From: Eubacteriales bacterium
Lineage (GTDB): Bacteria > Bacillota > Clostridia > Oscillospirales > CAG-272
Assembly (NCBI GenBank): GCA_045587665.1
Contig: JAZNCT010000088.1
Location: 13,621-77,620 of the forward strand
Reading direction: 5' to 3'
DNA: 64,000 nt
In this document: positions 12,739-62,940 of the stretch, in pieces
Layout: the number at the start of each line of letters is the position of its first letter
Position numbering within the stretch: the first letter of the stretch is position 1
Notes under the pieces: model-generated
Databases searched by the model: none
Told to the model about the DNA's origin: nothing
The model's input: only the letters and a program-made list of their open reading frames with translations
Position numbers and translations under genes: made by a program

Positions 12739-13254
12739 TTAAGCCTGTGCAGCCTCTCCGCCTTCTTCCTTGTCGATCTTTGCCTGGAGCACATAAGCCA
12801 GTCCGTAAAGAGGAGACTGGAGGCTTCCGAGCATCTTTGCGATAAGGGTCTCCTTTGAGGGGATATCTGCGAGAGAGATAATGGTGTTCTTATCAACAAC
12901 CGCACCGTCGAGATAACCTGCAAGGATCTCAAAGGACTCAACCTTTTCAGCATATTGCTTCATAACCTTGGCAGGAGCTACGGGATCATTTTCGCTGATC
13001 GCAATAGCTGTCATACCGGTCAGGAACTGCTTCATTTCGCCGAGACCTACCTCCTCACAAGCTCTGCCTGTGAGAGTGTTCTTCATAACCATGTACTTAA
13101 CGCCGGCTTTTCTGAGGGCCGCACGGAGCTTTGTATCGTCCTCAACGGTGATACCGCTGTAGTTAACGAGTACGCCCGCGGGAGAGTTCTTCAGAAGCTC
13201 TGCCAGATCGCTAACGGTTTGTTTCTTCTGTTCGAGTATTGCATTACTGGGCAT
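12739..13254 (-). CDS. rplJ: 50S ribosomal protein L10
   Basis: MPSNAILEQKKQTVSDLAELLKNSPAGVLVNYSGITVEDDTKLRAALRKAGVKYMVMKNTL... It lies directly upstream of rplL. Confidence 0.95.
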   Translation of the reverse strand: MPSNAILEQKKQTVSDLAELLKNSPAGVLVNYSGITVEDDTKLRAALRKAGVKYMVMKNTLTGRACEEVGLGEMKQFLTGMTAIAISENDPVAPAKVMKQYAEKVESFEILAGYLDGAVVDKNTIISLADIPSKETLIAKMLGSLQSPLYGLAYVLQAKIDKEEGGEAAQA

Positions 13255-13450
13255 TTCATTTCACCTCCCATTGTGAAAAATCAGACTTAGCAATAAATAT
13301 AAAAAATCTTTCTCCGAAAAGGCTTGCTCCAAAAAAGCGCGCACGAAGAAAGATTGCATAACAAAAAATATTAAAGTTATAAAATCGTTCCTCGGCAGGA
13401 GAGCTGCATAAATGCCGCCTTTACGGAAACCTGCTGTCTTTGGATAACAG
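13255..13450 (-). promoter_or_regulatory. Ribosomal protein L10 leader (autoregulatory 5' UTR)
   Basis: A ~200-nt 5' UTR on the minus strand contains ccaaagacagcaggt...cctgccgagg, the helix typical of Firmicute L10 leaders. It sits between the promoter and the rplJ RBS (gggaggtg). Confidence 0.6.
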
Positions 13451-13453
13451 GGG

Positions 13454-13483
13454 TATTATAGCACAACCTTTTCTGTTTGTCAA
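13454..13483 (-). promoter_or_regulatory. Consensus sigma-A promoter of rplJL
   Basis: Minus strand: TTGACA (rc of 13478-13483), 17 nt, TATAAT (rc of 13455-13460). Confidence 0.65.
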
Positions 13484-13510: not shown

Positions 13511-13591
13511 AAAAACAAACGCAAGCCCACTGCGGTTTTCTCTCGCAACTATCTGTTTCCGAGAAAGAAAGCAGTGGGCTTTTGTTTGTTT
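13511..13591. repeat. Miniature palindromic element sharing its termini with the 35.3-36.05 kb element
   Basis: Sequence: aaaaacaaacgcaagcccactgcggttttctctcg...cgagaaagaaagcagtgggcttttgtttgttt. The right terminus gcagtgggcttttgtttg is identical to 36035-36052. The left terminus equals 35330-35347 apart from a 4-nt insertion. Both left termini continue with ttttctc. Confidence 0.7.
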
Positions 13592-13614: not shown

Positions 13615-15426
13615 TTATTTATTCTTATTATATAGCTCTCGGAAGGCTTTGACCGTTTCGGCAAAATCGGAAATAGCGTCTCTTATGACCTCCGGTTTTG
13701 TAAGATCTATCTCAGCCACCTTTAAGCTGTCAAGAGGGCTTAGCCTGCCGCCGCATCCGAGAAAATCAAGATATTTCTTTATATAGGACTCGCCCTCATT
13801 TTCAATGCGGCGTACTATCGAAGAAGCCGCAGAAATACAGGTAGAATATTTATATACATAAAACCAACTGTAAAAATGAGGAATACGCATCCATTCAAGA
13901 GCTATTTCCTTGTCCGCAACAACATGGCCGCCAAAGTATTTTTCTATCAAAGAATAATACTTTTCACAAAGCAGCTCTTTAGTGAGAGTCTCCCCTTGCT
14001 CGCACAGACTGTGCATGGTCTTTTCAAATTCAGCAAACATCGTCTGCCTGTAGAGAGTTCCCTTATAGGTCTCCATTATCTGATTGAGGATAGAGAGCTT
14101 TTCTTCATCGCTATCAGATTCTCTCAGCTTTTTGTGGGCAAAAAGCAGCTCGTTTACAGTTGAGGCAACCTCGGCAACAAAAATTGTGTAAGAGGATCCC
14201 TGAGGGGTATTTGCCTTTGCCGAAAGATATGAGTGCATAGAATGTCCAGCCTCGTGGGCAAAGGTTGAAACATCATCCAGCTTGCCCGTATAGTTAAGGA
14301 GCATATAGGGGGCTGTGTCATAGCAGCCGGAGCTGTAAGCTCCGCCTCTCTTGCCCTTTGAAGGATAAACGTCAACCCAGTTTTCTTCCTTTATACCTTT
14401 TCTCAGCGTTTCCTGATATTCGCTGCCAAAGACGCCGACCGTGTTAAGAACCTCTTCAGTAGCTTCGTCAAAAGAATATTCCCTTGTACACGACGAGATG
14501 AGTGGTGTATACACATCATACATATGAAGCTTTGAAAGTCCCAAAACCTCTTTTTTAAGGTCATAATAATCAAAAAGCGGTTCAAGCCCATCAGACACAG
14601 TTTCTATAAGATTGTCATAGATATCCGGAGTGACCTCGTCTCTGAAGACAGACGCTGTCTGACTGTTTTCAAATCCCCTTATCTTGGAAAGAGTGACCCT
14701 CTCCTTTACATAAGAATCTATAAGGGCAGACAGCGTATTTCCAAAGCTATCATAGCTCTGATAGAGCTTTTTAAATGCCGACCTTCTCACTCTTCTGTCT
14801 TCGCTCATAAGACGAAGGACATATGTGGCCTCGGTAAGCTCAACAAGCTTTTTCTCTTCGTCTCTTATGCGGCCGAAGGAAAGCTCAGCATTGGCAAAAA
14901 CAGTCCTGATGTTGGAGTGTGAACCAAGGCTCATCTGCATATCGGCAAGGAGCTTTTCATTTTCATCCGAAAGGGTGTGGGGGCGATATCTCTGTTCTGT
15001 CTCTATCTCCCTTTTGTATTCGGCAAGCGGCGGAAAATCCTTCATCCATTTTTCGGTTGTTTCCTTGCTTATCTTAATAATTGTGGGAGAAACAAAGAAT
15101 GCCGCCGAGCCTGCGCTGCAAACAAGATTTCTCATTCTTCCCATAAGAGCCTGATAAAAATTATTTGAAAGATCCAGGTCTGCATTGAGATGAGCATAAA
15201 TATAAAGCTTATCTATAATTCTTTCAAGCCGGGTTTTGTCGCAGAACATCTCATAAAGCTCTTTTGCACCCTTTGCCATAGTGGAGGCGTGTGCGGGAAA
15301 AGCTTCTATAAGATCTTCAGCTTTTTTATAGTCCTTTTCAAAGGCATCCATGTTTTGGTATATGGCACTAAGATCCCATTTATATTTTGCCGGTATATCG
15401 GCTCTGTTCTCATTCATATCATTCAT
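13615..15426 (-). CDS. pepF: Oligoendopeptidase F (M3B family)
   Basis: 603 aa. Zinc motif HEAGHSMH, downstream EVAS/TVNE, N-terminus IPAKYKWDLSAIY typical of PepF. Confidence 0.9.
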   Translation of the reverse strand: MNDMNENRADIPAKYKWDLSAIYQNMDAFEKDYKKAEDLIEAFPAHASTMAKGAKELYEMFCDKTRLERIIDKLYIYAHLNADLDLSNNFYQALMGRMRNLVCSAGSAAFFVSPTIIKISKETTEKWMKDFPPLAEYKREIETEQRYRPHTLSDENEKLLADMQMSLGSHSNIRTVFANAELSFGRIRDEEKKLVELTEATYVLRLMSEDRRVRRSAFKKLYQSYDSFGNTLSALIDSYVKERVTLSKIRGFENSQTASVFRDEVTPDIYDNLIETVSDGLEPLFDYYDLKKEVLGLSKLHMYDVYTPLISSCTREYSFDEATEEVLNTVGVFGSEYQETLRKGIKEENWVDVYPSKGKRGGAYSSGCYDTAPYMLLNYTGKLDDVSTFAHEAGHSMHSYLSAKANTPQGSSYTIFVAEVASTVNELLFAHKKLRESDSDEEKLSILNQIMETYKGTLYRQTMFAEFEKTMHSLCEQGETLTKELLCEKYYSLIEKYFGGHVVADKEIALEWMRIPHFYSWFYVYKYSTCISAASSIVRRIENEGESYIKKYLDFLGCGGRLSPLDSLKVAEIDLTKPEVIRDAISDFAETVKAFRELYNKNK

Positions 15427-18608: not shown

Positions 18609-18631
18609 TAGAACGGTTGTTTAATCATAAC

Positions 18632-18674
18632 AAAAAAGACCTTTACAGAAAAAATCTGTGAAGGTCTTTTTTGT
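18632..18674. terminator. Bidirectional intrinsic terminator (asnA / comM-like)
   Basis: aaaaaagacctttacaga-aaaaa-tctgtgaaggtcttttttg, flanked by A- and T-runs. Confidence 0.8.
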
Positions 18675-18719
18675 TTTCATTTTCACATTGATATTTTTAG
18701 TAACTGCACCACCTAAAAG

Positions 18720-30906: not shown

Positions 30907-31104
30907 TTCAATTCTCCTTTTATTTTGTTTTTATTTATTATTTTGCCGTTTTCTTCTCTTTATTCATAAAAAAATTATAAAATTCTATTGAACTTTTCTT
31001 AACATTATGTTATAATTTAGGTATCTGTGCGCAGATAGTTTTTTTTACTTGTTTTTCGCATTTTTTTCATAAATTTACCCGTTTTAAACGGAGGAGGATA
31101 TATT

Positions 31105-32193
31105 TTGGAAGAAACACTGAAGCTGAGATCGGGCGCTACTATTCCGCTCCTTAAAAAAAGCGACCCTGATTTCCGCAAATATCTGACCAGAACAACACTT
31201 TCCCAGCTCCACCTGCTCCCGGGGGGAGATCCTGTGGCATTTTCATATTCGCCCGATAGCGAAGATGTTGTGTTTTATTTTGATCCGCTTTTTGTAAAAG
31301 AAGCCCCGGCTGAGGCTTGGTACGGTCATAATCACGGTGAAAATATGACACTTCCCAGCGGAAATGTTATCGAAAAAATGAGCACAAGAAGAGCTGCCGA
31401 AAACGGCTTTTATTCAAAAGAACGCCTTTCTCAAATGTTCTATCGCCCAATAGAAGAACCGGTTGCGTATACTGTTAAAGCAAGCGGAGAAACCGTTTGG
31501 TTCTATGATAAAAAGACCGCACTTCGCTTGCCGATGCTGTGCACAAAATGCGGTAAAAATGTAAGATTCAAGCATAAGCTTTGCCAAGAATGTTATGAGG
31601 AAGAAATGGCTATCCGCCGTGCCGAGGGCGAAATTTACCGCAACGCTTTTTACGGTATGGACCCAAAAAAGGTTCTCTTTTTCGACCTTGAGCTGACAGG
31701 CTTTTACGCCCGAGACGAAATAATTTCCATAAGCATTGTGAACGGCGCAGGTGACCTCATAATGGACACACTCGTTAAGCCGGACCACACAAAAAAATGG
31801 AAGAAAACCGAGAAAATTCACGGTATAACCCCCGAAATGGTTGAGGATGCCCCTCTTCTGGCGGATCTCATACCAAAGATCAAAGAAATATTTGAGGACT
31901 GTGACCGCCTTATCGCATACGGTGTTTCCACCGACTACAGCCATATAAAATATATCTATGAGACCGAGGAAGAACAGGAGGCACTGCACGAAAAGGTGCG
32001 CTGCTGTGCAAACGAATTTGTTCGCTATGCTCACGAAAACCGCCCGGATGTTCTTCACGCCAGCCTTATTGACGCAATGGAATGTTTTTCTATCGAATGG
32101 CAGGGAGTTCCTCACAGCTCACTTGCAGATACATATGCCTGCGCCGCTGTTTGGAACAGGCTCTTCCCAAATTATTATAAAAACGAGGAATGA
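31105..32193 (+). CDS. Fusion protein: unknown N-domain, Cys4 zinc ribbon, and DEDDh 3'-5' exonuclease
   Basis: TTG start after ggaggagg. Zinc ribbon CTKCGKNVRFKHKLCQEC. Exonuclease motifs: Exo I FFDLELTG, Exo II AYGVSTDYSHI, Exo III HSSLADTYACAAVW. Confidence 0.7.
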   Translation: MEETLKLRSGATIPLLKKSDPDFRKYLTRTTLSQLHLLPGGDPVAFSYSPDSEDVVFYFDPLFVKEAPAEAWYGHNHGENMTLPSGNVIEKMSTRRAAENGFYSKERLSQMFYRPIEEPVAYTVKASGETVWFYDKKTALRLPMLCTKCGKNVRFKHKLCQECYEEEMAIRRAEGEIYRNAFYGMDPKKVLFFDLELTGFYARDEIISISIVNGAGDLIMDTLVKPDHTKKWKKTEKIHGITPEMVEDAPLLADLIPKIKEIFEDCDRLIAYGVSTDYSHIKYIYETEEEQEALHEKVRCCANEFVRYAHENRPDVLHASLIDAMECFSIEWQGVPHSSLADTYACAAVWNRLFPNYYKNEE

Positions 32194-32196
32194 TAT

Positions 32197-32493
32197 ATGT
32201 TTTTTGATAAGCTTTTCGGCTCTGATAAGCCTATGCCTCCGGGAACAGACAAAGTAAAACTTCTTTGCACCGTTAATTCTCCCGAGGAAAAAGCAGTTAT
32301 AGAAAGTATTCTCCGCAGCGAGCAGATCCCATATCTTATAAGAGAAAGAGGATCCGGAGAGGCGGTTCGCATTATCATGGGAGCAAACTCCATAATGGGC
32401 TGTGATATCTATGTTGATGAAGAAAAATATGATGATGCCTTTGCCCTTATTTCTCCCGATGAGGAACCGGAACAAGGCTCCGAAGAACTTTGA
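32197..32493 (+). CDS. DUF2007-like small protein
   Basis: 98 aa, starting 4 nt after the exonuclease stop. The pattern LLCTVNSPEEKAVIESILRSEQIPYLIRERGSG resembles the putative signal-transducing DUF2007 fold. Confidence 0.45.
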   Translation: MFFDKLFGSDKPMPPGTDKVKLLCTVNSPEEKAVIESILRSEQIPYLIRERGSGEAVRIIMGANSIMGCDIYVDEEKYDDAFALISPDEEPEQGSEEL

Positions 32494-32511
32494 TTTGAAA
32501 AGGATTAAAAA

Positions 32512-33690
32512 ATGAAAGAACTTTTTCTTTGCAAATGCGGCGAGATCGTGCTGAAGGGTGCAAACCACAGCTTTTTTGAAAATGCTCTAATTAAAGAACT
32601 TAAATTTCGCCTGCGTTCATACGGTAAATTCAGCATAACCCATTCCCAGAGCACAGTTTATGTTGAACCGCAAAGCGAGCATGTTGATCTTGACGCTGTT
32701 TTTGATGCGCTTAGCCGTGTTTTCGGTATAGTTACTATCGAGCGTGCCGCTGTGTGCGAAAAGGATATTGATAAGATAAAAGAGGCAATAAAAGAATATA
32801 TTCCTCGCTTCATGAGAGATAAAAAGACCTTTAAGGTTGAGGCGAAGAGAGCTGATAAACGCTTTCCGCTTCAGTCTCCTGCCATTGCCGCAGAATGTGG
32901 CGGTGCAGTTCTCTCTGCCTTAAATTATCTGAGAGTAAACGTAAAAAATCCTGATATTGTTGTTCGCGTTGAGGTTAGAGAAAACGCAGCATACATCAGT
33001 GCCGGCTCCTTTAAGGGGGCAGGTGGTATGCCTGTTGGAACAAACGGAAAGGGTCTGCTTCTCCTTTCGGGGGGAATAGATTCTCCCGTTGCAGGATATA
33101 TGATGGCAAAAAGAGGCGTTAAAATTGATGCCGTTCATTTTGAAAGCTTCCCCTACACAAGTGAAAGAGCTAAAGAAAAGGTGCTTTCTCTTGCAAAGTT
33201 GGTCACAAGATATTCGGGAAGTATGCTTGTTCATGTGGTCTCACTTACAAAGGTTCAGGAGGAGCTTGCAAAAAACTGTGACGAAGAATATTTCACCCTC
33301 CTTCTGCGCAGATATATGATGGCTATCGCCGAAAAAATTGCTCTTAAAAACGATTGCCTTGCTCTTATAACAGGTGAAAGCGTCGGTCAGGTGGCTTCAC
33401 AGACAATGCAGGCTATCGCGGTTACAAACGCTTCGGTCAATATGCCGGTTTTCCGCCCGTGTATCGGTATGGATAAAGAGGAGATCGTTCAGATAGCTCG
33501 CAAAATAGACACTTTTGAAACCTCTATTCTGCCTTATGAAGACTGCTGCACGGTGTTCACTCCCCGTCATCCAAAAACAAAGCCGGAGCTCTCTAAGGTT
33601 CTGGAGCAGGAAAATAAGCTTGATTTCGATGCTCTTGTTGAAGAAGCTGTCAACAGTGCCGAACAGGTCTATATCCCTGCCGAGGTTTAA
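32512..33690 (+). CDS. thiI: tRNA 4-thiouridine(8) synthase
   Basis: GEIVLKGANHSFFE N-terminus, THUMP region, PP-loop LLLLSGGIDSPVAGYMMAKRG. Confidence 0.9.
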   Translation: MKELFLCKCGEIVLKGANHSFFENALIKELKFRLRSYGKFSITHSQSTVYVEPQSEHVDLDAVFDALSRVFGIVTIERAAVCEKDIDKIKEAIKEYIPRFMRDKKTFKVEAKRADKRFPLQSPAIAAECGGAVLSALNYLRVNVKNPDIVVRVEVRENAAYISAGSFKGAGGMPVGTNGKGLLLLSGGIDSPVAGYMMAKRGVKIDAVHFESFPYTSERAKEKVLSLAKLVTRYSGSMLVHVVSLTKVQEELAKNCDEEYFTLLLRRYMMAIAEKIALKNDCLALITGESVGQVASQTMQAIAVTNASVNMPVFRPCIGMDKEEIVQIARKIDTFETSILPYEDCCTVFTPRHPKTKPELSKVLEQENKLDFDALVEEAVNSAEQVYIPAEV

Positions 33691-33696
33691 AAAACG

Positions 33697-34326
33697 GTGC
33701 TTGATATGGCTGACACAGAAAAGCTGAATATTCCTTATCCCATTATAGTTGAAGGTAAATATGACCGTCTCCGCCTTTTGAGCGTTATAAATGCAAAAAT
33801 ATATACCACAGAGGGATTTGGTGTTTTTTCAAAAAATGAGCTGATCAAGCTGATGAGGGCTCTCTCCGAAAAAACTCCTATCATTGTCCTCACCGACAGC
33901 GACGGTGCGGGAGCTCTCATTCGTTCTCATATAACATCCTCTCTCCCAAAAGAGAAGCTCATCCAGCTTTATATACCCCAGATAAAGGGCAAGGAAAAGA
34001 GAAAAAAAGAGCCTTCAAAGGCAGGCACTCTTGGAGTTGAAGGAATGGAAAGAGAACTTCTCACATCAATTTTTCTTCCTTATGCCGCCGAAAGCGCAAG
34101 CCAGGAAAACTGCTCCGATGCTTATACGAGATCTCTTGAAAATCCTCTCTCAAAAGCGGATTTTTACAGAGACGGTCTTTCGGGCAGAGAAGACAGCTCC
34201 GCAAAAAGAGATGCACTTGCAAAAAAGCTGGATCTCCCTTGCGGTATGACTGCAAATGCTCTTCTTGCGGCTCTTAAGCTTCTCGTTTCATATGAAGAAT
34301 ATCTTCATTTGGTATCAAGAGAATAA
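33697..34326 (+). CDS. Toprim domain protein (DUF4093 / RNase M5-like)
   Basis: IIVEGKYDRLRL ... IIVLTDSDGAGALIRSHI toprim acidic motifs. The start is ambiguous (GTG 33697 or ATG 33706). Confidence 0.6.
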   Translation: MLDMADTEKLNIPYPIIVEGKYDRLRLLSVINAKIYTTEGFGVFSKNELIKLMRALSEKTPIIVLTDSDGAGALIRSHITSSLPKEKLIQLYIPQIKGKEKRKKEPSKAGTLGVEGMERELLTSIFLPYAAESASQENCSDAYTRSLENPLSKADFYRDGLSGREDSSAKRDALAKKLDLPCGMTANALLAALKLLVSYEEYLHLVSRE

Positions 34327-34348
34327 TATCTAAAAACGGAGGGTATAA

Positions 34349-34765
34349 ATGCCGGAAAATATTGACTCTAAAAACGTCACCACGGCTGCTCTTGCTTATC
34401 TTGGTGACTGCGTTGTGGAAATATGCGTCCGCTCTCTGCTTGTAAAAGAAGGGCTTTCAAGCTCACGTCATCTGAATTCCGAAGCACTTAATTTTGTAAG
34501 AGCTCCGGAGCAGGCCGAAGCTCTACATAGAATTTTGGATGTTCTCACAGAAGAAGAAAACGCTGCATACCGAAGAGGAAGAAATATCGGCCACACAAAC
34601 ACCCCAAAAAACTGTACTGTTTCCCAGTATAGGCACGCAACAGGCTTTGAGGCTCTTTTCGGTTATCTTCATCTTGAAGGAAAAAACGAAAGGATCAATG
34701 AGCTTTTCTGCTTGGCATATGCGGATAAAATAGAAGATCTCAGAAATAAAAAATCAAAATTATAA
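34349..34765 (+). CDS. mrnC: Mini-ribonuclease 3
   Basis: ALAYLGDCVVEICVR ... NAAYRRGRN ... YRHATGFEALFGYLHLEG: RNase III-like catalytic signature without a dsRBD. Confidence 0.8.
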   Translation: MPENIDSKNVTTAALAYLGDCVVEICVRSLLVKEGLSSSRHLNSEALNFVRAPEQAEALHRILDVLTEEENAAYRRGRNIGHTNTPKNCTVSQYRHATGFEALFGYLHLEGKNERINELFCLAYADKIEDLRNKKSKL

Positions 34766-34784
34766 ATTAAAGGAGAATTTTATT

Positions 34785-35270
34785 ATGGAAAACATAAATG
34801 TTAAAATCACCGTTCAAAATTACGGTGAGATCGAGCTTGAGCTTTATCCCGATAAAGCTCCCATAACTGTTGAAAACTTTGTTCGCCTTGTTAAATCAAA
34901 TTTCTATGAAAATCTCATTTTCCACCGTGTTATCGAGGGCTTTATGATTCAGGGCGGCGGCTATGACTACCTTATGAACGATACAAATGCTGCTACGATA
35001 AAGGGCGAATTTGCTTCAAACGGCTTCACCCAGAATGATATAAAGCATACTCGCGGTGTTATCAGCATGGCAAGAACAATGATACCAAACTCTGCTTCCT
35101 CTCAGTTCTTTATAATGCACAAGGATGCTCCTCATCTTGACGGTCAGTATGCCGCATTTGGTAAAGTTACAAAAGGCATTGAGGTTGTTGACAAAATTGC
35201 TTCTGTTCCAACAAACTTCAGCGATTGCCCTGTAACCCCCGTTATGATCGAAAAGATTGAAATGATCTAA
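34785..35270 (+). CDS. ppiB: Peptidyl-prolyl cis-trans isomerase (cyclophilin type)
   Basis: FHRVIEGFMIQGGG ... GVISMARTMIPNSASSQFFIM ... LDGQYAAFGKV. Confidence 0.92.
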   Translation: MENINVKITVQNYGEIELELYPDKAPITVENFVRLVKSNFYENLIFHRVIEGFMIQGGGYDYLMNDTNAATIKGEFASNGFTQNDIKHTRGVISMARTMIPNSASSQFFIMHKDAPHLDGQYAAFGKVTKGIEVVDKIASVPTNFSDCPVTPVMIEKIEMI

Positions 35271-35277
35271 AATAAAC

Positions 35278-35306
35278 TAAAATCCGTCCAAAAGGACGGA
35301 TTTTTC
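35278..35306 (+). terminator. Intrinsic terminator of ppiB
   Basis: aaaatccgtcc-aaaa-ggacggatttttc. Confidence 0.85.
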
Positions 35307-35328
35307 TTTTATAAACAAACTTCGAAAA

Positions 35329-36052
35329 CAAACAAAAGCCCACTGCGTTTTCTCAACCCTAACAAACGATTTCCGATACCGAGAGCATTGAGGCGGCTTG
35401 CCTTCCCCTTTTTGCGCCGGTGATTTTGGGCGCAAAAAGGAACGGCGTGAGTTTCACGGAGCGACTTTGAAAATCGCAGACTTGCGATTTTCGGGAGCGT
35501 GGGTCCGCCGAAAGGGTGTTCTTAGAGGGAAACGCCTTTCCCTCTAAGCGCGTTTTCGTCTATTTGGGGCGTACCAAATAGACTGCCCGCGCGGCATGAG
35601 CGCAGAAAAGGTTAGAAGTTAGTTTATCACCGAGAAAAGTTATCACATATGATTTTTCAGCGACAGAGGTTTTCTGCAGTAAGTTTTTTTATATAGAGTT
35701 TCTTGCTGCACAGAATTTTAGCCTATAGATAAACGCATAGGATAAAGTTTGGCTGAAATGTTTCTATCTTCTTGCGCTCATGCCGCGCGGGCCCCTCCTT
35801 TGGCATTTCCCAAAGGAGGCAAAAGAAACATCAGAGGGGAACGCAGTTCCCCTCTGAGCACTCCCCTCCTATGAGGCCCTCGCTCCTGAAAATTGCAATT
35901 CTGCAATTTTCAAAGTCGCTCCGTAAACAGCATCGACATTCCCAAATTGCGCCATAAAGCACCGGCGCAATTTGGGTACAGCGAACCGCCAACTGCTGTC
36001 GTTCTCCGAAACCGATCGTTCGGAGTGAAAAATCGCAGTGGGCTTTTGTTTG
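35329..36052. repeat. 724-bp non-coding nested palindrome: two ~280-nt inverted arms, three conserved boxes, four covarying hairpins per arm, and a 168-nt core
   Basis: Box A is 35329-35347 and rc 36034-36052. Box B is 35456-35474 and rc 35906-35924. Box C is 35585-35604 and rc 35773-35792. All three are identical between arms. Hairpin pairs: H1 35407-35440 / 35941-35976, H2 35469-35492 / 35888-35911, H3 35521-35548 / 35831-35857, H4 35558-35583 / 35794-35819. There is no credible ORF. Confidence 0.85.
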
Positions 36053-36074
36053 GCTTGATAGATAGTTTTCTCCG

Positions 36075-36470
36075 CTATTTGAGTATCATATATATCCCCG
36101 ACCAAACCACTATAATTGCAAAAATACCCTTCAGCCAAGCTGTACTGATCTTTGAAAGCAAAAATGCCCCCAAAAGCCCGCCGAGCACTGCCGGGATCAC
36201 ATACACCCCAAACCGACTGAAATCTATATTGCCCCGAAGGGCATATATTGCCGCTGAAAGAAAGGATATGGGCAGTGTTGCCGCTATAACATTTGCAAAT
36301 ATATCTCTCCTTGCCATTTCCTCTTCCGAAAGCAGCTTTTCAAGCGCAAAGGTCATTATTATACCGCCTCCTGCTCCAAGCAGACCATTTGCAAGTCCGC
36401 CGAAAAAACCGGCAAAACAAAACAGAATCGTTCTTTCATTTGTTTTTAACTTTTCTTTTCTCATTTTCAA
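36075..36470 (-). CDS. Half-size TSUP (TauE/SafE, DUF81) family membrane transporter subunit
   Basis: 131 aa with 4 TM helices. Gly-rich motif FAGFFGGLANGLLGAGGGIIM, as in TauE/SafE proteins, which I recall as usually about twice this length. Confidence 0.6.
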   Translation of the reverse strand: MKMRKEKLKTNERTILFCFAGFFGGLANGLLGAGGGIIMTFALEKLLSEEEMARRDIFANVIAATLPISFLSAAIYALRGNIDFSRFGVYVIPAVLGGLLGAFLLSKISTAWLKGIFAIIVVWSGIYMILK

Positions 36471-55053: not shown

Positions 55054-55704
55054 TCAAAGTGCAGAATCAAGCAGCTTTATCATCCACGGCACAAGAACAA
55101 ACAGCAGTGCCGCCGCAAGAATACAGAAAACCACCGTCAGTATAAAACCAACTATTCCGCTGCCCTTTTCAGAAAACAGCGCAAGCATCTCTTTTTCCTT
55201 TTCTGCCGGCAGATAATATCTGTCATCTGCGGGACACGGAACAAAGTCGCCTATTATCTGCGCTTTATTTTTATCCTTCTTCTCGGCGTTTTCTTCTAAA
55301 ATGCTGCGCACTTTCTCTTCATATTTATCTCTCTCTGTGCTTCTTATCATTCTTTTTAATGTTCCGTTTTTAAGAGACATTCTTATTGATCTTGAATTTG
55401 AAAGCCCCAGCTCCCCAAGAGTTTTTGCGCTTTCCGGCTCTAATGCTCCTGCCATTGAAAGCGCTCTGACAAGAGACCCGAGATATTTACGCTTATAAAC
55501 CATTACTGCTGATGCTATTATGATTCCTATTGCAACAGCAATAATTATCATTCGATATGTTACAAGCTGATTTCCAAAGGAGAAATTTTCATATCTCTCG
55601 CCTGAACCGCCATAAAGCAGCTCTGTGAAAAATTCCTTTAACGAGCTTGTGAAAGAGTTATCTGACGCTGCAGTATCTGCCGACAAAAAACGATTTGTGA
55701 TCAA
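55054..55704 (-). CDS. Hypothetical membrane protein
   Basis: TTG start after aaggag. Two TM helices flank a charged cytoplasmic segment. No motif recognised. Confidence 0.5.
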   Translation of the reverse strand: MITNRFLSADTAASDNSFTSSLKEFFTELLYGGSGERYENFSFGNQLVTYRMIIIAVAIGIIIASAVMVYKRKYLGSLVRALSMAGALEPESAKTLGELGLSNSRSIRMSLKNGTLKRMIRSTERDKYEEKVRSILEENAEKKDKNKAQIIGDFVPCPADDRYYLPAEKEKEMLALFSEKGSGIVGFILTVVFCILAAALLFVLVPWMIKLLDSAL

Positions 55705-55727
55705 GTTTTGATTTCTCCTTTGACCGT

Positions 55728-56999
55728 TTATCTTATTACGTCAACGCCCATGTAGCGGCGGAGTGCCTCCGGAACTGTTACAGAGCCGTCTTCATTCTGG
55801 TAGTTCTCTATTATTGCCGCAACTGTGCGTCCCACAGCAACGCCTGAGCCATTGAGAGTGTGAACCAAACGAGGCTTTTCACCGGGAGCGGGTCTGTATT
55901 TTATATTTGCTCTGCGAGCCTGATAATCTTCAAAATCTGAGCAGGAGCTGATCTCAACATATCTGTCATATGAAGGCATATAAACCTCTATATCATATGT
56001 TTTTGCGCTGGAGAAGCCAAGGTCTCCTGTAGAAAGGCAAACAACTCTGTAAGGCAGTCCAAGCCCGGACAGAACGCGCTCCGCATCGTTGGTGAGTTTT
56101 TCCAATTCTTCATAAGAAGTTTCGGGTGTAGTGAATTTAACAAGCTCTACCTTATTAAACTGATGCTGACGAATGAGTCCTCTTGTATCACGTCCTGCGC
56201 TTCCTGCCTCTGCACGGAAGCAAGCTGAATATGCGCAGTAGCAGATAGGAAGAGATTCTGCATCAAGTATTTCGTCACGGTGCATATTTGTAACAGGCAC
56301 CTCAGCGGTTGGAATAAGGAAGCAATCGTTGTTTGCAACTCTGAAGGCATCCTCTTCAAACTTAGGAAGCTGACCTGTTCCTCTCATAGAATCACGGTTT
56401 ACCATAAATGGGGGGAATATCTCTGTATATCCGTGCTCTGTGTGTGTGTCAAGATAATAGGAAATAACAGCTCTTTCAAGTTTTGCGCCAAGTCCGCGGT
56501 AGAAGTGGAATCTTGGACCTGTTACCTTTGCCGCAGTTTCGGGGTCAAGAATTCCAAGCTCCTTGCCAAGATCCCAATGAGCCTTAGGCTCAAAATCAAA
56601 ACTTCTTACCTCTCCAACTCTGCGAATTTCAACATTATCGCTGTCGTCTGCACCTGTCTGAACGCTTGCGTTTGGAACATTTGGTATCGAGAGCAGAAGA
56701 TCCTTTATACGGGCGTCGATTGCGTCGATCCTGTCGGTATCCTCTTTAACCTTCTCAGAAAGTGCCTTCATCTCCGCAAAAATTGGGGCAACATCCTTTC
56801 CTTCCTTCTTCATAAGAGGAACCTGCTTTGATATCTTGTTCTGCTCAGCCTTTTTTGACTCTGTATCTGCTATAAGAGCTCTGCGTTCTCCGTCAAGAAC
56901 TATAAGCTCATCTATCTCTGCACTGTAGTCCTTTTGTCTTGTTTTAAGTCTTTCTTTAACATATTCTGTGTTTTCTTTAATAAATCTAGTGTCAAGCAT
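55728..56999 (-). CDS. serS: Serine--tRNA ligase
   Basis: [21 protein letters not shown] coiled-coil arm. Class II motifs [25 protein letters not shown] and [18 protein letters not shown]. Confidence 0.96.
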
Positions 57000-57027
57000 T
57001 GTTTTTACCTCTCGTTATTTTATATTT

Positions 57028-57933
57028 TTAATTTTCGTCAAAAATTTCGTTTCCGCAGAGCTTTCTGAGTATCTCTTCAAGATCTTCGTTGTCTATATAA
57101 GCAAGCTCAACGGTCTTTTTCTTTGCTTCGCTGTGTATCTTAACTCTTCTTCCGAGAAAGGACATACTTTTTCTCTCAAGCTCTTTAAGATATATGCCCT
57201 TTTGCTCATTTTCTTTTGTGTTTTTTTCTTTTTCGGGTCTTTGGGTTTTATCACTTTCGGCATTGAGACGCTTTACCGAAGCCTCTATTTCTCTAACCGA
57301 AAGTCCCCTCATATATATCTTGTTTGCAAGAGGAATTATATCTCCCGAATTTTTCAGTGAAAGCAGGGTTCTTGCGTGGCCTGTGCTTATCTTTCCGTCT
57401 TTAAGCATTTCCAGTACCTCGTCCGGAAGCTCCAGCAATCGCATCATATTTGTGATCGTCGGTCTGCTCTTTCCAACCTGGGAAGCAACCTGCTCCTGCG
57501 TAAGGTCAAATCTTTCGATAAGATCTCTGTAGGAAAGAGCTTCTTCAAGCGGATTAAGATCCTGCCTTTGAACATTCTCTATTATTGCAACCTGAGCGGC
57601 CCTCAGATCGTTTCCGTCAAAAATAACAACCGGAATTTCATTTAATCCTGCCATTTTGGAAGCTCTCCAGCGTCTTTCGCCGGCAATTATCTCATAAAGC
57701 CCGGGAGCAGCGCTGCTCTCTCTTACAATGATAGGCTGAAGGACTCCGTGCTCTGCAATAGACTGCGCCAAAAGCGCAAGTCCTTCTTCTTCAAAGCTTT
57801 TTCTCGGCTGATTTTTTCTCGGCTCGATCTCTGAAAGGCGGAGAGTTGTTACACTTCCCTTTTTTGTTTCGGTTATGTTATCGTCCAGCAGATCCATAAA
57901 CCCTCTGCCAAGACCCATATTTTTTCTTGCCAT
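57028..57933 (-). CDS. parB: ParB/Spo0J chromosome partitioning protein
   Basis: LRLSEIEPRKNQPRKSF, ParB box II IIAGERRWRASKMAG, HTH LTQEQVASQVGKSRPTITNMMRLL. Confidence 0.92.
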   Translation of the reverse strand: MARKNMGLGRGFMDLLDDNITETKKGSVTTLRLSEIEPRKNQPRKSFEEEGLALLAQSIAEHGVLQPIIVRESSAAPGLYEIIAGERRWRASKMAGLNEIPVVIFDGNDLRAAQVAIIENVQRQDLNPLEEALSYRDLIERFDLTQEQVASQVGKSRPTITNMMRLLELPDEVLEMLKDGKISTGHARTLLSLKNSGDIIPLANKIYMRGLSVREIEASVKRLNAESDKTQRPEKEKNTKENEQKGIYLKELERKSMSFLGRRVKIHSEAKKKTVELAYIDNEDLEEILRKLCGNEIFDEN

Positions 57934-57951
57934 ATAAACACCTTCAAAAAT

Positions 57952-58713
57952 TTATATTCTTTCCATCAGTTCTTTTGCAACCTCAAGATATTCTCCCGCG
58001 CCCTTTGAGACCCTGTCGTGATAATACACGGGCATACCAAAGCCGGGTGCCTCGGAAAGACGGACATTTCTTGATATCGTTGTTTTAAAAAGCTTGTCTG
58101 CATAATGCTTTTTCAGCTCGGAGATCACCTGCATAGAAAGCACCAGTCGTCCGTTATACATGGTTACAAGTATTCCGCAAACAAAAAGCTCGCTGTTATA
58201 TTTTTGTTTTATCTTGCTAATGGTTATCATGAGCTGAGAAAGACCTTCAAGTGCATAAAATTCGCACTGCATCGGAACTATGACACCGTCTGATGCCACA
58301 AGAGCATTGAGAGTCAACATACCAAGAGACGGTGGACAATCTATTATTATGTAGTCATATTCATCCCTCACACAGGAAAGAGCTTCTTTCATGCTTTTTT
58401 CGCCGTTTTCAATCTGAAAAAGGTCGAGCTCACAACCTGCAAGACTGATGTTTGCCGGTATTACAGAAAGATTTTGAAATTTGGTTTTTATAATTGCTTC
58501 TTTTACGTCAACTCCGTCAAGCAATATTTCGGCAGTTGTATTTTTTAGCGATTTTTTCGCTACGCCAACACCGCTTGTGGTGTTTCCCTGAGGGTCAAGA
58601 TCCACAAGCAATACATTTTTTCCAAGTATTCCAAGGGAAGCGGCAACATTGACCGCAGAGGTCGTTTTTCCAACGCCTCCCTTTTGATTTGCAAATGTTA
58701 TTATTTTTCCCAT
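57952..58713 (-). CDS. parA: ParA/Soj chromosome partitioning ATPase
   Basis: Deviant Walker A NQKGGVGKTT, DLDPQGN, IIIDCPPSLG. Confidence 0.93.
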   Translation of the reverse strand: MGKIITFANQKGGVGKTTSAVNVAASLGILGKNVLLVDLDPQGNTTSGVGVAKKSLKNTTAEILLDGVDVKEAIIKTKFQNLSVIPANISLAGCELDLFQIENGEKSMKEALSCVRDEYDYIIIDCPPSLGMLTLNALVASDGVIVPMQCEFYALEGLSQLMITISKIKQKYNSELFVCGILVTMYNGRLVLSMQVISELKKHYADKLFKTTISRNVRLSEAPGFGMPVYYHDRVSKGAGEYLEVAKELMERI

Positions 58714-59019
58714 ATCATTCCTCTATCATAAGAAATAGATCAAAAATTGCTCTTTATATTATATCACTTAATATTTGTTTTTTCAAGGAGTATTTATAAT
58801 TATTAAATATTTATTTTTATTTAAATGAGGTTTTATGAAAAACTTTTCTTCTTTTTTCGTCTAAAGCAAACTTTTAGACTTTATTTTTTTAATATTTTCC
58901 TGAAAATTTCTTTATTCCCCAACAAAGCCAAACATTTATATTTCACTTTTGTCATTTAAAAACAAAAAAATCTCACACAAAAAACGAGCATATCGGCAGA
59001 AAAAATATGTTATGATTAT

Positions 59020-60072
59020 GTGGCAATAAAAAAAGAAAGGAATTCATATAAAATGACGAAAAATTTTGAAGATGTAAAGCCCAAAAATTCTCCATTTTGC
59101 AATAACCAAAACGAAAACGAACTGTTTAAAGATAACGATGTGTGGAGGCCCGATGCAAGATATTTTACAAGAAGGGAGGTAAACAGGCGAAAGGCTGAGG
59201 ATATGCAGCTTGCGGCAAGCTCAAACATTGTAAATATAGATATTTTCCGCATCAGACCAAACCGTTCTCAGCCAAGAGTATATTTCGAATCAAATGCAAC
59301 CATACGGCTAGCCGATTCGATAAGAAGATACGGTATACTTCAGCCTCTGACGGTTCGCATAATCTGCACAGAAAATCCCGTCAGTGAGGAAATTATCTAT
59401 GAAAACAACACATTTTTTGAAATAATCGCAGGCGAAAGAAGATTCAGAGCTGCAAAAATATTGGGGATGAAGAGTGTTCCCTGCATTATTATTTCAGCAG
59501 ATGATAAAAAATCTGCCGAGCTTGCTCTTATTGAAAATCTTCTTAGAGAAGATCTCAATATTTTTGAAACCGCGAGAGCGATAAAAAAGCTTGTTGATGA
59601 TTTTAAGCTTACTCAAGAAGAGGTCGCAAAAAAGCTATCAATGAGCCAATCGGCTGTTGCAAACAAACTGAGACTTTTAAAATATACAGAAAAAGAAGAG
59701 GAAATTATATTAAAAAATCATCTGACAGAAAGGCACGCACGTGCACTGCTAAAGATATCCGATCCAAACGAAAGAATTGATATACTTAAAATAATAATTT
59801 CAGCACATATGAATGTAAGTGCCACCGAAAGCTATGTTGAAAAAATTTTAAATTCAGTTAATACCGAAGAAATCCCCTTACATAGCCGAAAACTTCCTAT
59901 TATAAAGGATATAAGGATTTTTTATAACAGTATCGACAAGGCACTTGATATTGTTAAATCTGCCGGTGTGGAGATTTTTTCAAAAAGAAGAGAAGACGAT
60001 AACGGTGTAACAATAGAAATAAACATTCCAAACCCAAGAAAACAGCACAATGTTTCACGTGAAACTTTCTAA
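59020..60072 (+). CDS. ParB-like / Noc-like nucleoid-associated protein, divergent from parA
   Basis: ParB box II IIAGERRFRAAKILG, HTH LTQEEVAKKLSMSQSAVANKLRLL. The N-terminal ~70 aa are unique. The start is ambiguous (GTG 59020 or ATG 59053, which follows gaaagga). Confidence 0.75.
   Translation: MAIKKERNSYKMTKNFEDVKPKNSPFCNNQNENELFKDNDVWRPDARYFTRREVNRRKAEDMQLAASSNIVNIDIFRIRPNRSQPRVYFESNATIRLADSIRRYGILQPLTVRIICTENPVSEEIIYENNTFFEIIAGERRFRAAKILGMKSVPCIIISADDKKSAELALIENLLREDLNIFETARAIKKLVDDFKLTQEEVAKKLSMSQSAVANKLRLLKYTEKEEEIILKNHLTERHARALLKISDPNERIDILKIIISAHMNVSATESYVEKILNSVNTEEIPLHSRKLPIIKDIRIFYNSIDKALDIVKSAGVEIFSKRREDDNGVTIEINIPNPRKQHNVSRETF
60051..60066. promoter_or_regulatory. parS centromere-like site (15/16 match to TGTTNCACGTGAAACA)
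   Basis: tgtttcacgtgaaact lies within the last codons of the noc-like gene. Confidence 0.75.
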
Positions 60073-60088
60073 AATGTTTTAGAATAAA

Positions 60089-60116
60089 GAAAAACCGCCT
60101 CAAAGCGGTTTTTTCT
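60089..60116. terminator. Bidirectional terminator (noc-like / rsmG) overlapping the rsmG stop codon
   Basis: gaaaaaccgc-ctcaaa-gcggttttttc. Confidence 0.75.
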
Positions 60117-60864
60117 TTATTTGTGAATACTGTCTCGGATACTTTTGCACAGTTTTTTTCACTTTCTTGATTTCTATCAGCGTTCTTTCTGCAATTTTTT
60201 CTTCAGCCGTCTCGTCTTTCAGGTTTAGTTTAATTATATTTTCTGTCTTGCCGCCCAACACTGATATTGCATTTTCAGAAGCCTTTATCTCTTCGTCTGC
60301 CGTTTTTGCTTTTAATGATATAAAACTGCCGCCGACCTTTACAAATGGTAAACACAGTTCACAGAGAACAGGGAGAGATGCAACAGCTCTTGCAGTTGCT
60401 ATATCAAATTTTTCTCTGAGACAAACTTCCTTGTTTTTTTCGCTTACAAAACAGAATTCCTCTGCCCTGCCGCTGATTGCATTTATATTTGAAAGTCCTA
60501 ATTTTTTTGCAGTCTCATTTACATACGCAATTTTTTTTGCAGTGCTGTCTATTGATGTTATTTTAATATCAGGGCGAGCTATAGCAATCGGAAAAGTAGG
60601 AAAACCTCCACCGCATCCTATATCGCAAATGCTTGCGCCTTCCTTTATATCAATGTTTAAAAGAAGGAGTGAATCGGCATAATGACGGGCAATAACCGAA
60701 TCTATATCGGTTATTGCCGTTATATTCATTTTTTCGTTTGTTTCAAGCATTATGCTTGTCAGCAGGTAAAACTTTTCTAAAATATCTTCTTTTAAATATG
60801 CAAAAAGCGAATTTTCACTGAAAATACGCTCGACTTTGCTAAAAAAAATGTCTTTTTCCTTCAT
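60100..60864 (-). CDS. rsmG: 16S rRNA (guanine527-N7)-methyltransferase
   Basis: NITAITDIDSVIARHYADSL, SAM motif ICDIGCGGGFPTFPIAI, ATARAVASL. Confidence 0.9.
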   Translation of the reverse strand: MKEKDIFFSKVERIFSENSLFAYLKEDILEKFYLLTSIMLETNEKMNITAITDIDSVIARHYADSLLLLNIDIKEGASICDIGCGGGFPTFPIAIARPDIKITSIDSTAKKIAYVNETAKKLGLSNINAISGRAEEFCFVSEKNKEVCLREKFDIATARAVASLPVLCELCLPFVKVGGSFISLKAKTADEEIKASENAISVLGGKTENIIKLNLKDETAEEKIAERTLIEIKKVKKTVQKYPRQYSQIKKKPL

Positions 60865-60966
60865 ATTATTATATACCCGTATTTTTATTATACTTTTGTT
60901 TCAAATAGAATTCAATAAATCAATCGAATGTACTTTAAGTGAATTTTTATTTGAAAATAAACAGGC

Positions 60967-62892
60967 TTATTTCAGACCGAGATAAATAAGCAAAACAGAA
61001 ATATCTGCAGGGCTGACCCCACTTATTCTCGATGCCTGACCAATAGTCAGCGGTTTATATTTATCAAGCTTTTGATATGCCTCGATTCTGAGTCCTTTAA
61101 TTTTTGAATAGTCAATGTCTTTTGGAAGTTTTTTTTCTTCAAGAGCCTCGTGTCTTTTTATTTCGGCAAGCTGCTTTTTTATATATCCCTCATATTTTAT
61201 AGAAACCTCAACAGTAGTTTTAACCGCCCTGCTTAGTTCTGTTCTTTTTTCATCAATTATGGAAAGAGACTCATATGTTATGGGCGGACGGCGAATCAGA
61301 TCCGCAAGAGAAACACCTCCGCTCACCGGTGTTTCACCTATTTCTGCAAGAAATTTATTTGCTTTACCGGGAGAAATATGTGTTTTTTCAAGTCTTATGA
61401 TTTCATGTTCGATAATTGACTTTTTCTCCATGAATTTTTCATATTTTTCTTTACTGACAAGGCCTGCTTCAAATCCTATTTCAGTTAGTCTCAGATCTGC
61501 ATTATCCTGCCTCAGGAGAAGTCTGTATTCTGAGCGAGAGGTCATCATTCTATATGGCTCGTTTGTCCCTTTTGTCACCAGGTCATCAACAAGAGTACCA
61601 ATATAAGAGCCGCTTCTCTTTAATATAAGAGGTTCTTTATTTCTGATAGAAAGCGAGGCATTAAGACCTGCAAGAAGTCCCTGTGCGGCAGCCTCCTCAT
61701 ATCCGGAAGTTCCATTGAACTGACCTGCTCCGTAGAGGCCTTTTATATTTTTAAATTCAAGGGTGGGATATAGTTCAAGAGGATCACAGCAATCATATTC
61801 TATTGCATAGGCATATCTCATGACCTGAGCATTTTCAAAGCCCGGAAGAGAGCGCAGCATCTTGATCTGAATATCGGTGGGCATAGAGGTTGAAAATCCC
61901 TGAAGGTACATTTCCTCAGTGTTTTCTCCCATTGGCTCAACAAAAAGCTGGTGTCTTTCTTTATCGGCAAATCTCACAATTTTATCCTCTATTGAAGGAC
62001 AGTATCTTGGACCTGTTCCATGTATCTGACCCGAATACATCGCACTTTTGTTTATATTTTCTTTTATTATTTCGTGTGTTTTATTTGATGTATAAACAAT
62101 ATGACAGGGAATTTGATCTATAACGTCAAGTTCATTTTCTCCCGTTTCGGATGAATAAGGAATTATGGGAGTTTCACCATTTTGTTTTTCAAGCTGAGAA
62201 AAATCTATTGTTGATTTTTTGATCCTTGCAGGGGTTCCGGTTTTAAACCTCATCAGCTTTATTCCGTGTTCGGCAAGAGAAGATGAAAGACCCTTTGCCG
62301 GCAAAAGACCGTCAGGACCGGCTTCATAATTTGTGTGTCCAACAAAGATCCTGCTTTCAAGATATGTGCCCGAACATATTATAACCTTTTCGCACGACCA
62401 AACGTCACCAAGTCTTGTTTTAACACCAATTATCTTTTTCTTATAACTGTCGTCTTTAAAATTGACATTTTCTGTTATGATTTCGGTTATTTCTTCCTGT
62501 ATAAGTCTGAGATTTTCGGTTTTTTCAAGGGTCTGTTTCATAATAGACTGATACTTTTTTCTGTCAGCCTGAATACGTTTTGAATGAACAGCAGCACCCT
62601 TTCCCAAATTAAGTGTTCGGCTCTGGAGAGTTACAAGATCTGCCGCTCTTCCCATTTCTCCGCCAAGAGCATCAATCTCATAAACAAGATGTCCCTTCCC
62701 CGTTCCGCCTATAGAAGGGTTGCAGGGCATATTTCCGATAGAATCAAGAGACATGGTAAAAAGAACGGTATCAACACCCGTTCTTGCGCAGGCAAGAGCC
62801 GCTTCTATTCCTGCGTGACCTGCCCCTATAACAACGGCAGATGCACTCTTCTCATTTATCTCAACTGTAGCAGAAAAGTTTTCTTTTTGCAT
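60967..62892 (-). CDS. mnmG: tRNA uridine 5-carboxymethylaminomethyl modification enzyme
   Basis: FAD motif VVIGAGHAGIEAALACAR, PCNPSIGGTGKGHLVYEIDALGG, GTGPRYCPSIEDK. Confidence 0.96.
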   Translation of the reverse strand: MQKENFSATVEINEKSASAVVIGAGHAGIEAALACARTGVDTVLFTMSLDSIGNMPCNPSIGGTGKGHLVYEIDALGGEMGRAADLVTLQSRTLNLGKGAAVHSKRIQADRKKYQSIMKQTLEKTENLRLIQEEITEIITENVNFKDDSYKKKIIGVKTRLGDVWSCEKVIICSGTYLESRIFVGHTNYEAGPDGLLPAKGLSSSLAEHGIKLMRFKTGTPARIKKSTIDFSQLEKQNGETPIIPYSSETGENELDVIDQIPCHIVYTSNKTHEIIKENINKSAMYSGQIHGTGPRYCPSIEDKIVRFADKERHQLFVEPMGENTEEMYLQGFSTSMPTDIQIKMLRSLPGFENAQVMRYAYAIEYDCCDPLELYPTLEFKNIKGLYGAGQFNGTSGYEEAAAQGLLAGLNASLSIRNKEPLILKRSGSYIGTLVDDLVTKGTNEPYRMMTSRSEYRLLLRQDNADLRLTEIGFEAGLVSKEKYEKFMEKKSIIEHEIIRLEKTHISPGKANKFLAEIGETPVSGGVSLADLIRRPPITYESLSIIDEKRTELSRAVKTTVEVSIKYEGYIKKQLAEIKRHEALEEKKLPKDIDYSKIKGLRIEAYQKLDKYKPLTIGQASRISGVSPADISVLLIYLGLK

Positions 62893-62940
62893 TTTAATAT
62901 TTTTTCACTTTCACTTTTTTTAAAAGACAAATATTGCGCT

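Follow-up and report, generated by a model that had tools for sequence, protein, structure and literature searches.

The closest analogues of the DNA described here would be REPINs or MITE-like repeats. REPINs are doublets of REP sequences that form hairpins and are mobilised by RAYT tyrosine transposases (Bertels & Rainey; PMC3337134, PMC3116915). Both doublet polarities occur, the A- and T-runs flanking them suggest that they have been co-opted as terminators, and "long palindromic singlets" arise from them by excision of the doublet centre (PMC3337134).

In a 64-kb stretch of DNA (the window, by which we mean the whole stretch analysed) from a metagenome-assembled genome (MAG) of an uncultured, Oscillospiraceae-like Clostridia lineage, for which the sample names suggest a rumen origin, an 81-nt hairpin follows the pepF gene and a 756-bp foldback element lies at 35 kb. 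We propose that the hairpin is probably the stump of such a non-coding foldback repeat, itself one of a widespread REPIN- or MITE-like family of gut Clostridia. Strains of one species have the small or the full form at one and the same site, copies of the element are found at unrelated sites, and the hairpin structure is kept by compensated change.

Like a REPIN, the element is non-coding, intergenic and without a target-site duplication, and it consists of two inverted terminal palindromes around a spacer that keeps its hairpin while the sequence drifts. Both polarities occur in its family, A- and T-runs flank it, and the solo palindrome with complementary flanks has its counterpart in the 81-nt hairpin, at whose site sister strains hold a full element. 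It differs from REPINs in size (756 bp compared with ~90–110 bp), in that its "spacer" contains a conserved multi-hairpin unit that carries the invariant 20-mer, and in its host, which belongs to the Clostridia and is not a Proteobacterium. Because the element is ~8 times larger and built of multi-hairpin units, and because the search for an IS200-like transposase of the RAYT kind covered ~600 kb of loci and the window, we do not claim membership of the REPINs.

Bacterial MITEs (ERIC/IRU, Correia (CREE), RUP; reviewed in PMC3184786) share with the element terminal inverted repeats, a long hairpin, the lack of coding capacity, the location at 3′ ends of genes and presence/absence differences between strains. 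The element departs from them in that it shows no target-site duplication and in that its 756 bp exceed their usual upper size of ~400 bp; an insertion sequence with matching ends was not seen among ~45 loci. Its conserved 20-mer occupies the inner ends of the arms, whereas in other hosts the 20-mer stands at or near the outer end. Size variants of ERIC produced by internal deletion or insertion are known.

Results

A solo hairpin between pepF and rplJ

The arms of the small hairpin (21 nt each, 13513–13533 and 13571–13591) are 90% complementary and stand 37 nt apart, and as RNA of the pepF strand it folds with −38.4 kcal/mol (z = −6.9 against shuffles). It is placed between the pepF stop codon and the rplJ promoter (Table 1), beginning 24 nt after the former on the minus strand and ending 28 nt upstream of the −35 box of the latter. 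With a GC-rich stem-loop and the tail UUGCGUUUGUUUUU directly after pepF, it conforms to the sequence definition of an intrinsic terminator and, judged by sequence, probably serves as the present terminator of pepF, shielding the strong rplJ promoter. The TTTTAAA found on either side belongs to the palindrome itself, so that there is no target-site duplication at this site.

Table 1. Positions of the small hairpin, the foldback element and their neighbouring features in the window.
Feature	Position	Strand	Remarks
81-nt hairpin	13511..13591	.	solo terminal module (H0) of the foldback element
81-nt hairpin, A-rich run	13511-13524
81-nt hairpin, S0	13525-13533		GCCCACTGC
81-nt hairpin, loop			37 nt, between S0 and S0′, carries its own inner stem
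81-nt hairpin, S0′	13571-13579		GCAGTGGGC
81-nt hairpin, T-rich run	13580-13591
pepF	13615..15426	minus
rplJ	12739..13254	minus
rplJ promoter	13455-13483	minus	perfect consensus: TTGACA, 17 nt, TG-TATAAT
L10 leader	13292-13461		Rfam RF00557, 49.8 bits; behind the rplJ promoter
19-mer CAAACAAAAGCCCACTGCG, first match	13516	plus	2 mismatches
19-mer, second match	13570	minus	1 mismatch
19-mer, third match	35329	plus	0 mismatches
19-mer, fourth match	36034	minus	0 mismatches
Cyclophilin (PPIase) gene	34785..35270	plus
PPIase terminator hairpin	35274..35309	plus	the gene's own, just outside the element
Full-length foldback element	35313..36068	.	long imperfect palindrome, 756 bp; nested inverted repeats
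Element core	35329-36052		between the perfect 19-mer termini
Left arm	35329..35604	plus	one polar unit, outer to inner
Left-arm perfect hairpins	35407-35440, 35469-35492, 35521-35548, 35558-35583		followed by the 20-mer
Invariant 20-mer GCCCGCGCGGCATGAGCGCA	35585..35604	plus	inner end of left arm
A+T-rich centre	35605..35772	.	168 bp, non-palindromic
Invariant 20-mer	35773..35792	minus	inner end of right arm
Right arm	35773..36052	minus	second unit, convergent orientation
Right-arm hairpins	35794-35819, 35831-35857, 35887-35912, 35941-35976		followed by the intact H0
Right-arm H0	35988..36043	.	GCCAACTGC, 38 nt, GCAGTGGGC; part collinear with the 81-nt hairpin
Membrane-protein ORF	36075..36470	minus	131 aa

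A foldback element of two polar units

The large element lies between convergent genes, the cyclophilin gene on the plus strand and the membrane-protein ORF on the minus strand, and folds with −372 and −386 kcal/mol on its two strands (z −25 and −18). Its building block is a polar unit of ~280 nt comprising an A-rich run, a terminal hairpin module (H0), four further hairpins and the 20-mer GCCCGCGCGGCATGAGCGCA; in the left arm H0 is degenerate. The two arms are 74% identical (212/286 aligned columns), and their stems stay perfect because the differences inside them are compensated. The element contains short ORFs only and no transposase gene; a concatenate of its ORFs in six frames found no match among 5.8 billion proteins, and exact-protein look-ups of six proteins encoded in the window, one of them taken at wrong coordinates, returned no record. 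There is no convincing promoter in the A+T-rich centre (35605–35772), which holds the only occurrence of GAAGTTAGTT in the window (35615–35624), and a related centre also follows the 20-mer in the sister-strain copy described below.

No further copies of the element were found elsewhere in the 64-kb window. A hairpin with 27-nt arms at 18623–18681 (89% complementary, 5-nt loop, flanked by A- and T-runs), located between convergent genes, is an ordinary bidirectional terminator and has no sequence relation to the element. Towards the end of the window, the ORF order in 55700–63975 resembles an origin-proximal region, with parB- and parA-like ORFs and a 641-aa mnmG-like ORF (recognised by eye, from N-termini only).

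Kinship of the small and the large form

The 19-mer CAAACAAAAGCCCACTGCG has four matches in the window at up to three mismatches, at both ends of both loci, compared with 0.01 expected. The 81-bp sequence singled out at 13511–13591 by the sequence-only reading is present and forms a hairpin, and the comparison bears out the identity of its right terminus with 36035–36052; at the left terminus, where that reading had assumed a 4-nt insertion, the difference from 35329–35347 is in fact a pair of substitutions (GC for AA). The shared terminal repeat of ~19 bp that it described stands by virtue of the four matches, but drew the kinship too narrowly: the interior is homologous too, and the whole H0 module is shared. 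Read on the minus strand (13579..13516), the small hairpin is 80% identical over 65 nt to the right-terminal 65 nt of the large element, and a four-way alignment places it collinear with the terminal module, loop included. In the well-preserved arms (the right arm in the window and the sister copy), H0 is made up of S0 (GCCNACTGC), ~38 nt with an inner stem, and S0′ (GCAGTNGGC), and the 81-nt hairpin amounts to one H0 between the A-rich run of one element end and the T-rich run of the other. The H0 stems differ by a compensated change, reading GCCAACTGC/GCAGTTGGC in the sister copy compared with GCCCACTGC/GCAGTGGGC in the 81-nt hairpin.

Full and solo forms at the same site in one species

Three contigs from independent assemblies belong to the same species (L061, L062 from GCA_017468165.1, and L063; pepF 99% identical, DNA 96.8%, or ~96–97%). 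Their match to the window extends across pepF and the flank GGCGGCAAGATTTTAAACAAACAAAAGCC as far as position 13563; they then enter a full-length copy of the element, which in all three assemblies begins at the exact junction where the window has the 81-nt hairpin. All three contigs end inside this copy, and continuity with the rplJ leader beyond it is assumed. The pepF-proximal arm of the sister copy (L061) is ~92–93% identical to the right arm in the window (91.7% over 290 nt by BLAST) and ~70% identical to the left arm.

Four relatives whose pepF is 81, 78, 77 and 75% identical carry four different, ordinary pepF terminators unrelated to the hairpin. As these terminators all differ, the 81-nt hairpin is not a conserved pepF terminator; neither the small nor the full state is present at the pepF site of these relatives, which leaves the event unpolarised by an outgroup. 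In the 77% relative (L064), a contig starts inside another copy of the element at a third locus, which lies upstream of an RNase T gene; compensated changes have preserved the hairpins of this copy. Within the species itself, two loci are demonstrated, across strains.

The 35-kb locus lies at a break in synteny with sister strains. Sister contigs (L146–L149) are collinear with the window only to 35282, inside the PPIase terminator, beyond which they continue with a different terminator, a 209-aa ORF, gyrA and gyrB and have no element; the whole region downstream of the PPIase gene differs between the window and these contigs. The position of the 35-kb copy might be owed to rearrangement rather than to transposition. 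The preceding block (30925–35282; RNase T, a 98-aa ORF, ThiI, DUF4093, Mini-RNase III and PPIase) is 96% identical to the sister contigs, where different DNA adjoins it on both flanks.

The relatives offer some further observations. In L064, pepF directly follows the PPIase gene, so that the two loci which bear the element in the window adjoin each other there. The same contig has ~7 tandem units at 200–480, each a variable 4–5-bp hairpin followed by TGAAGTTAGTT, just after the element arm and a duplicated 20-mer. In the 81% relative (L150, 5980–6123), the pepF terminator is followed by a different array of perfect hairpins, within which the contig ends; this array possibly represents another hairpin-rich repeat family.

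A wider family in gut metagenomes

A metagenome scan for the 20-mer, with Y and R allowed at two positions, yielded 74 loci, ~45 of which, with 40–60% G+C, have the same architecture as one another: a first hairpin, a GCGG/YCTTT linker, a second hairpin whose stem varies, a single base and the invariant 20-mer GCCCGCGCGGCATGAGCGCA. By record name some of these loci come from human gut, others apparently from termite gut and rumen. Of 37 non-redundant units, 29 have a perfect stem of at least 10 bp in the hairpin adjoining the 20-mer, 24 distinct stems being represented, and 0.55% of shuffles pass the same test; stems were counted directly, a MAFFT alignment of the units being structurally out of register.

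The units come in several arrangements. Besides single units, there are palindromes of 640–740 bp with the 20-mers outermost, the polarity opposite to that in the window (L087/L103, L088, L111), and a pair of divergent units (128-nt arms, 83% complementary) around 1.19 kb with two small ORFs, one DUF1273/SLOG-like and the other of the XRE-type HTH class (L112, 1300–2742). The same DUF1273/XRE ORF pair adjoins a unit in L108 (4520–5650), on the 199-kb contig of another organism to which L112 also belongs and which carries at least three units. A mini form of 69 nt in another organism (L143, 9–77) is reduced to the reverse-complement 20-mer, one hairpin and the 20-mer. In a subgroup apparently from termite-gut metagenome (L074, L075, L113, L124, L128, L133, L134, L135), conserved sequence continues past the 20-mer, in the order 20-mer, agcNaa, ~20 variable nt and a conserved hairpin CYYTGCGCGCAGCGCAA, often 10–40 nt ahead of a start codon; in L075 there are two copies at a distance of 333 nt, and the two hairpins are missing from L113. 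Widespread among gut Clostridia, the family appears to be undescribed.

The possibility that the 20-mers are transposon termini (TG...CA ends) was dropped, as they face inward in the window and conservation passes beyond them in some subgroups.

Searches for a mobilising agent and for known relatives

The terminal inverted repeats of a MITE are present as perfect 19-nt termini at 35329 and 36034. A target-site duplication of fixed length was found neither at the two window loci nor in six two-ended relatives. Across the ~45 loci (~600 kb), no transposase or recurrent neighbour gene is linked to the units, the DUF1273-like and XRE ORFs recurring beside units at just a few of the loci. Neither tnpA nor tnpB adjoins any of the ~45 units, and tblastn with an IS200 TnpA (an approximate query) gave no match in the ~600 kb of loci or in the window.

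Rfam has no gathering-score match to the element in the window or in 16 related loci, and a search over 35100–36300 at E up to 10 gave nothing relevant. BLAST against phage and plasmid collections returned no match, viral contigs gave coding-sequence coincidences only or nothing, and the 20-mer string had no relevant hit in the literature. A scan of genome collections for CAAACRMAAGCCCACTGC produced 60 single matches at chance level, the pattern being too strict in that sister strains have GCCAACTGC. Among the matches of that scan, ~12 from Novosphingobium and related genomes (L002, L003, L009, L012, L016, L024, L028, L033, L036, L044, L049, L057) share conserved flanks CAAATTnnnnCAAACGAAAGCCCACTGCnnnnAATTCGCAGAA; this site is unrelated to the element.

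Discussion

Sister strains hold a full copy at the very site of the 81-nt hairpin, which supports the proposal, first made from the sequence of the window, that the hairpin is a deletion derivative of a full-length foldback element. We infer that the full form collapsed to the solo form through its terminal H0 modules. In the full element, two convergent ~280-nt units flank the 168-bp A+T-rich centre and, because each terminal H0 is itself a hairpin, the pair forms near-direct as well as inverted repeats. Everything in between could be deleted by recombination, by slippage during replication or by enzymatic excision between the two, and the product would be one H0 joining the A-rich run of one end to the T-rich run of the other, the form that follows pepF here. 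Such a reduction of a repeat element to a solo hairpin is in itself an ordinary type of event.

The further idea of the sequence-only reading, a MITE-like dispersed family, holds with regard to dispersal, given the copies at other loci and the ~45 metagenome loci, but not with regard to the target-site duplication expected of a classical MITE; direct repeats are absent at both window copies, as that reading had noted. The contrary outcome it had named beforehand, only two occurrences together with a conserved pepF terminator, did not arise.

Other known systems resemble parts of this picture. The 81-nt form looks like an intrinsic terminator in having an A-run, a GC-rich stem and a T-run right after a stop codon, but differs from one as the remnant of a much larger element whose stem carries an extra inner hairpin. 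Solo LTRs provide a parallel in process only, one terminal module being left after recombination between terminal repeats; unlike LTRs, the repeats of the element are inverted and act as direct repeats only because each is a hairpin. IS200/IS605 ends, PATEs and TnpB guide-RNA scaffolds likewise have stacked hairpins and no target-site duplication, and the single units recall them in that the conserved end directly meets unrelated flank. Those systems have asymmetric ends, however, whereas the element here is a long palindrome, conservation extends beyond the 20-mer in some subgroups, and neither tnpA nor tnpB occurs near the ~45 units.

An alternative that we consider possible, if rather doubtful, regards the units as functional RNAs of 3′ untranslated regions (stabilisers, terminators or protein-binding sites) that are not mobile and are spread by ordinary recombination, the small hairpin being the terminator part. 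The strong covariation of the stems and the invariance of the 20-mer and linkers in hosts of 40–60% G+C would fit such a role, and so would orientation: units mostly follow a gene in the same direction (~21 compared with 10, by crude ORF calls), and all arms in this species point the same way as the gene reading into them. Against this stand the missing match to any Rfam family and the composition of the stems, which are almost entirely Watson–Crick and agree no less well with a constraint that acts on DNA or on both strands. In 33 of 37 units, folding is better for the unit strand than for its complement, but we rejected this bias as a sign of RNA because composition-matched shuffles reproduce it fully. 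Moreover, presence or absence between strains, contig breaks at the element and unrelated flanks point to mobility or instability. A functional RNA would also be compatible with our main explanation, the stump of a foldback repeat.

The direction of the change could also be the reverse, an older 81-nt hairpin, either terminator-like or a small mobile sequence, having grown into the large element by a palindromic insert or duplication; this we regard as improbable. Growth would be in keeping with the lack of an outgroup to polarise the event, with the complete and well-formed terminator that the solo hairpin makes, and with the small forms found elsewhere in the family, such as the 69-nt hairpin of L143. 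However, the same terminal sequences occur at the second, unrelated locus at 35 kb, so the terminal hairpins belong to the repeated DNA and not to the pepF locus, and the full form is present in three sister assemblies. Growth would also call for a precisely placed insertion together with inverted duplication of H0, whereas collapse takes a single event between near-direct repeats; a terminator hairpin that received a symmetric insertion, the alternative offered by the sequence-only reading, is less parsimonious.

That the palindrome or its junctions are chimeric fold-backs of assembly is very improbable. The element does stand at a synteny break with sister strains, and four contigs end inside copies, but fold-back artefacts give perfect palindromes, whereas the identity of the arms here is no more than 74%, with differences that compensate each other; in addition, the synteny break at 35282 falls outside the element, the same arm sequence recurs in independent assemblies, and the small hairpin sits inside otherwise collinear sequence. 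A chance or convergent likeness of two unrelated terminators, to which the generic layout of A-run, GC stem and T-run in both might lend some colour, is scarcely credible in view of the four matches where 0.01 are expected, the loop-wide homology and the full element that sister strains carry at the pepF site.

A more tentative extension, which we put forward as a possibility on the less likely side, is that the GCCCGCGCGGCATGAGCGCA-ended unit is the substrate of an enzyme acting in trans, perhaps a single-copy HUH or RAYT-like transposase or another recombinase, which would read it as folded single-stranded DNA or RNA. The family might then be a Clostridia counterpart of the REPIN–RAYT system, with far larger modular elements across several gut genera, and the 81-nt hairpin might be an excision footprint.

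For the hairpin itself the result is modest, a documented deletion derivative that, from its sequence features, now probably acts as a terminator. The elements as a group break metagenome assemblies, four contigs ending inside copies, and copies are found at synteny breakpoints between strains. Copies also make up the 3′ ends of housekeeping genes, so that genome reconstruction as well as gene expression may be affected in abundant uncultured gut Clostridia. The 20-mer, conserved over hosts of 40–60% G+C and flanked by covarying hairpins, provides a handle for finding the whole family and for seeking a protein that recognises the 20-mer.
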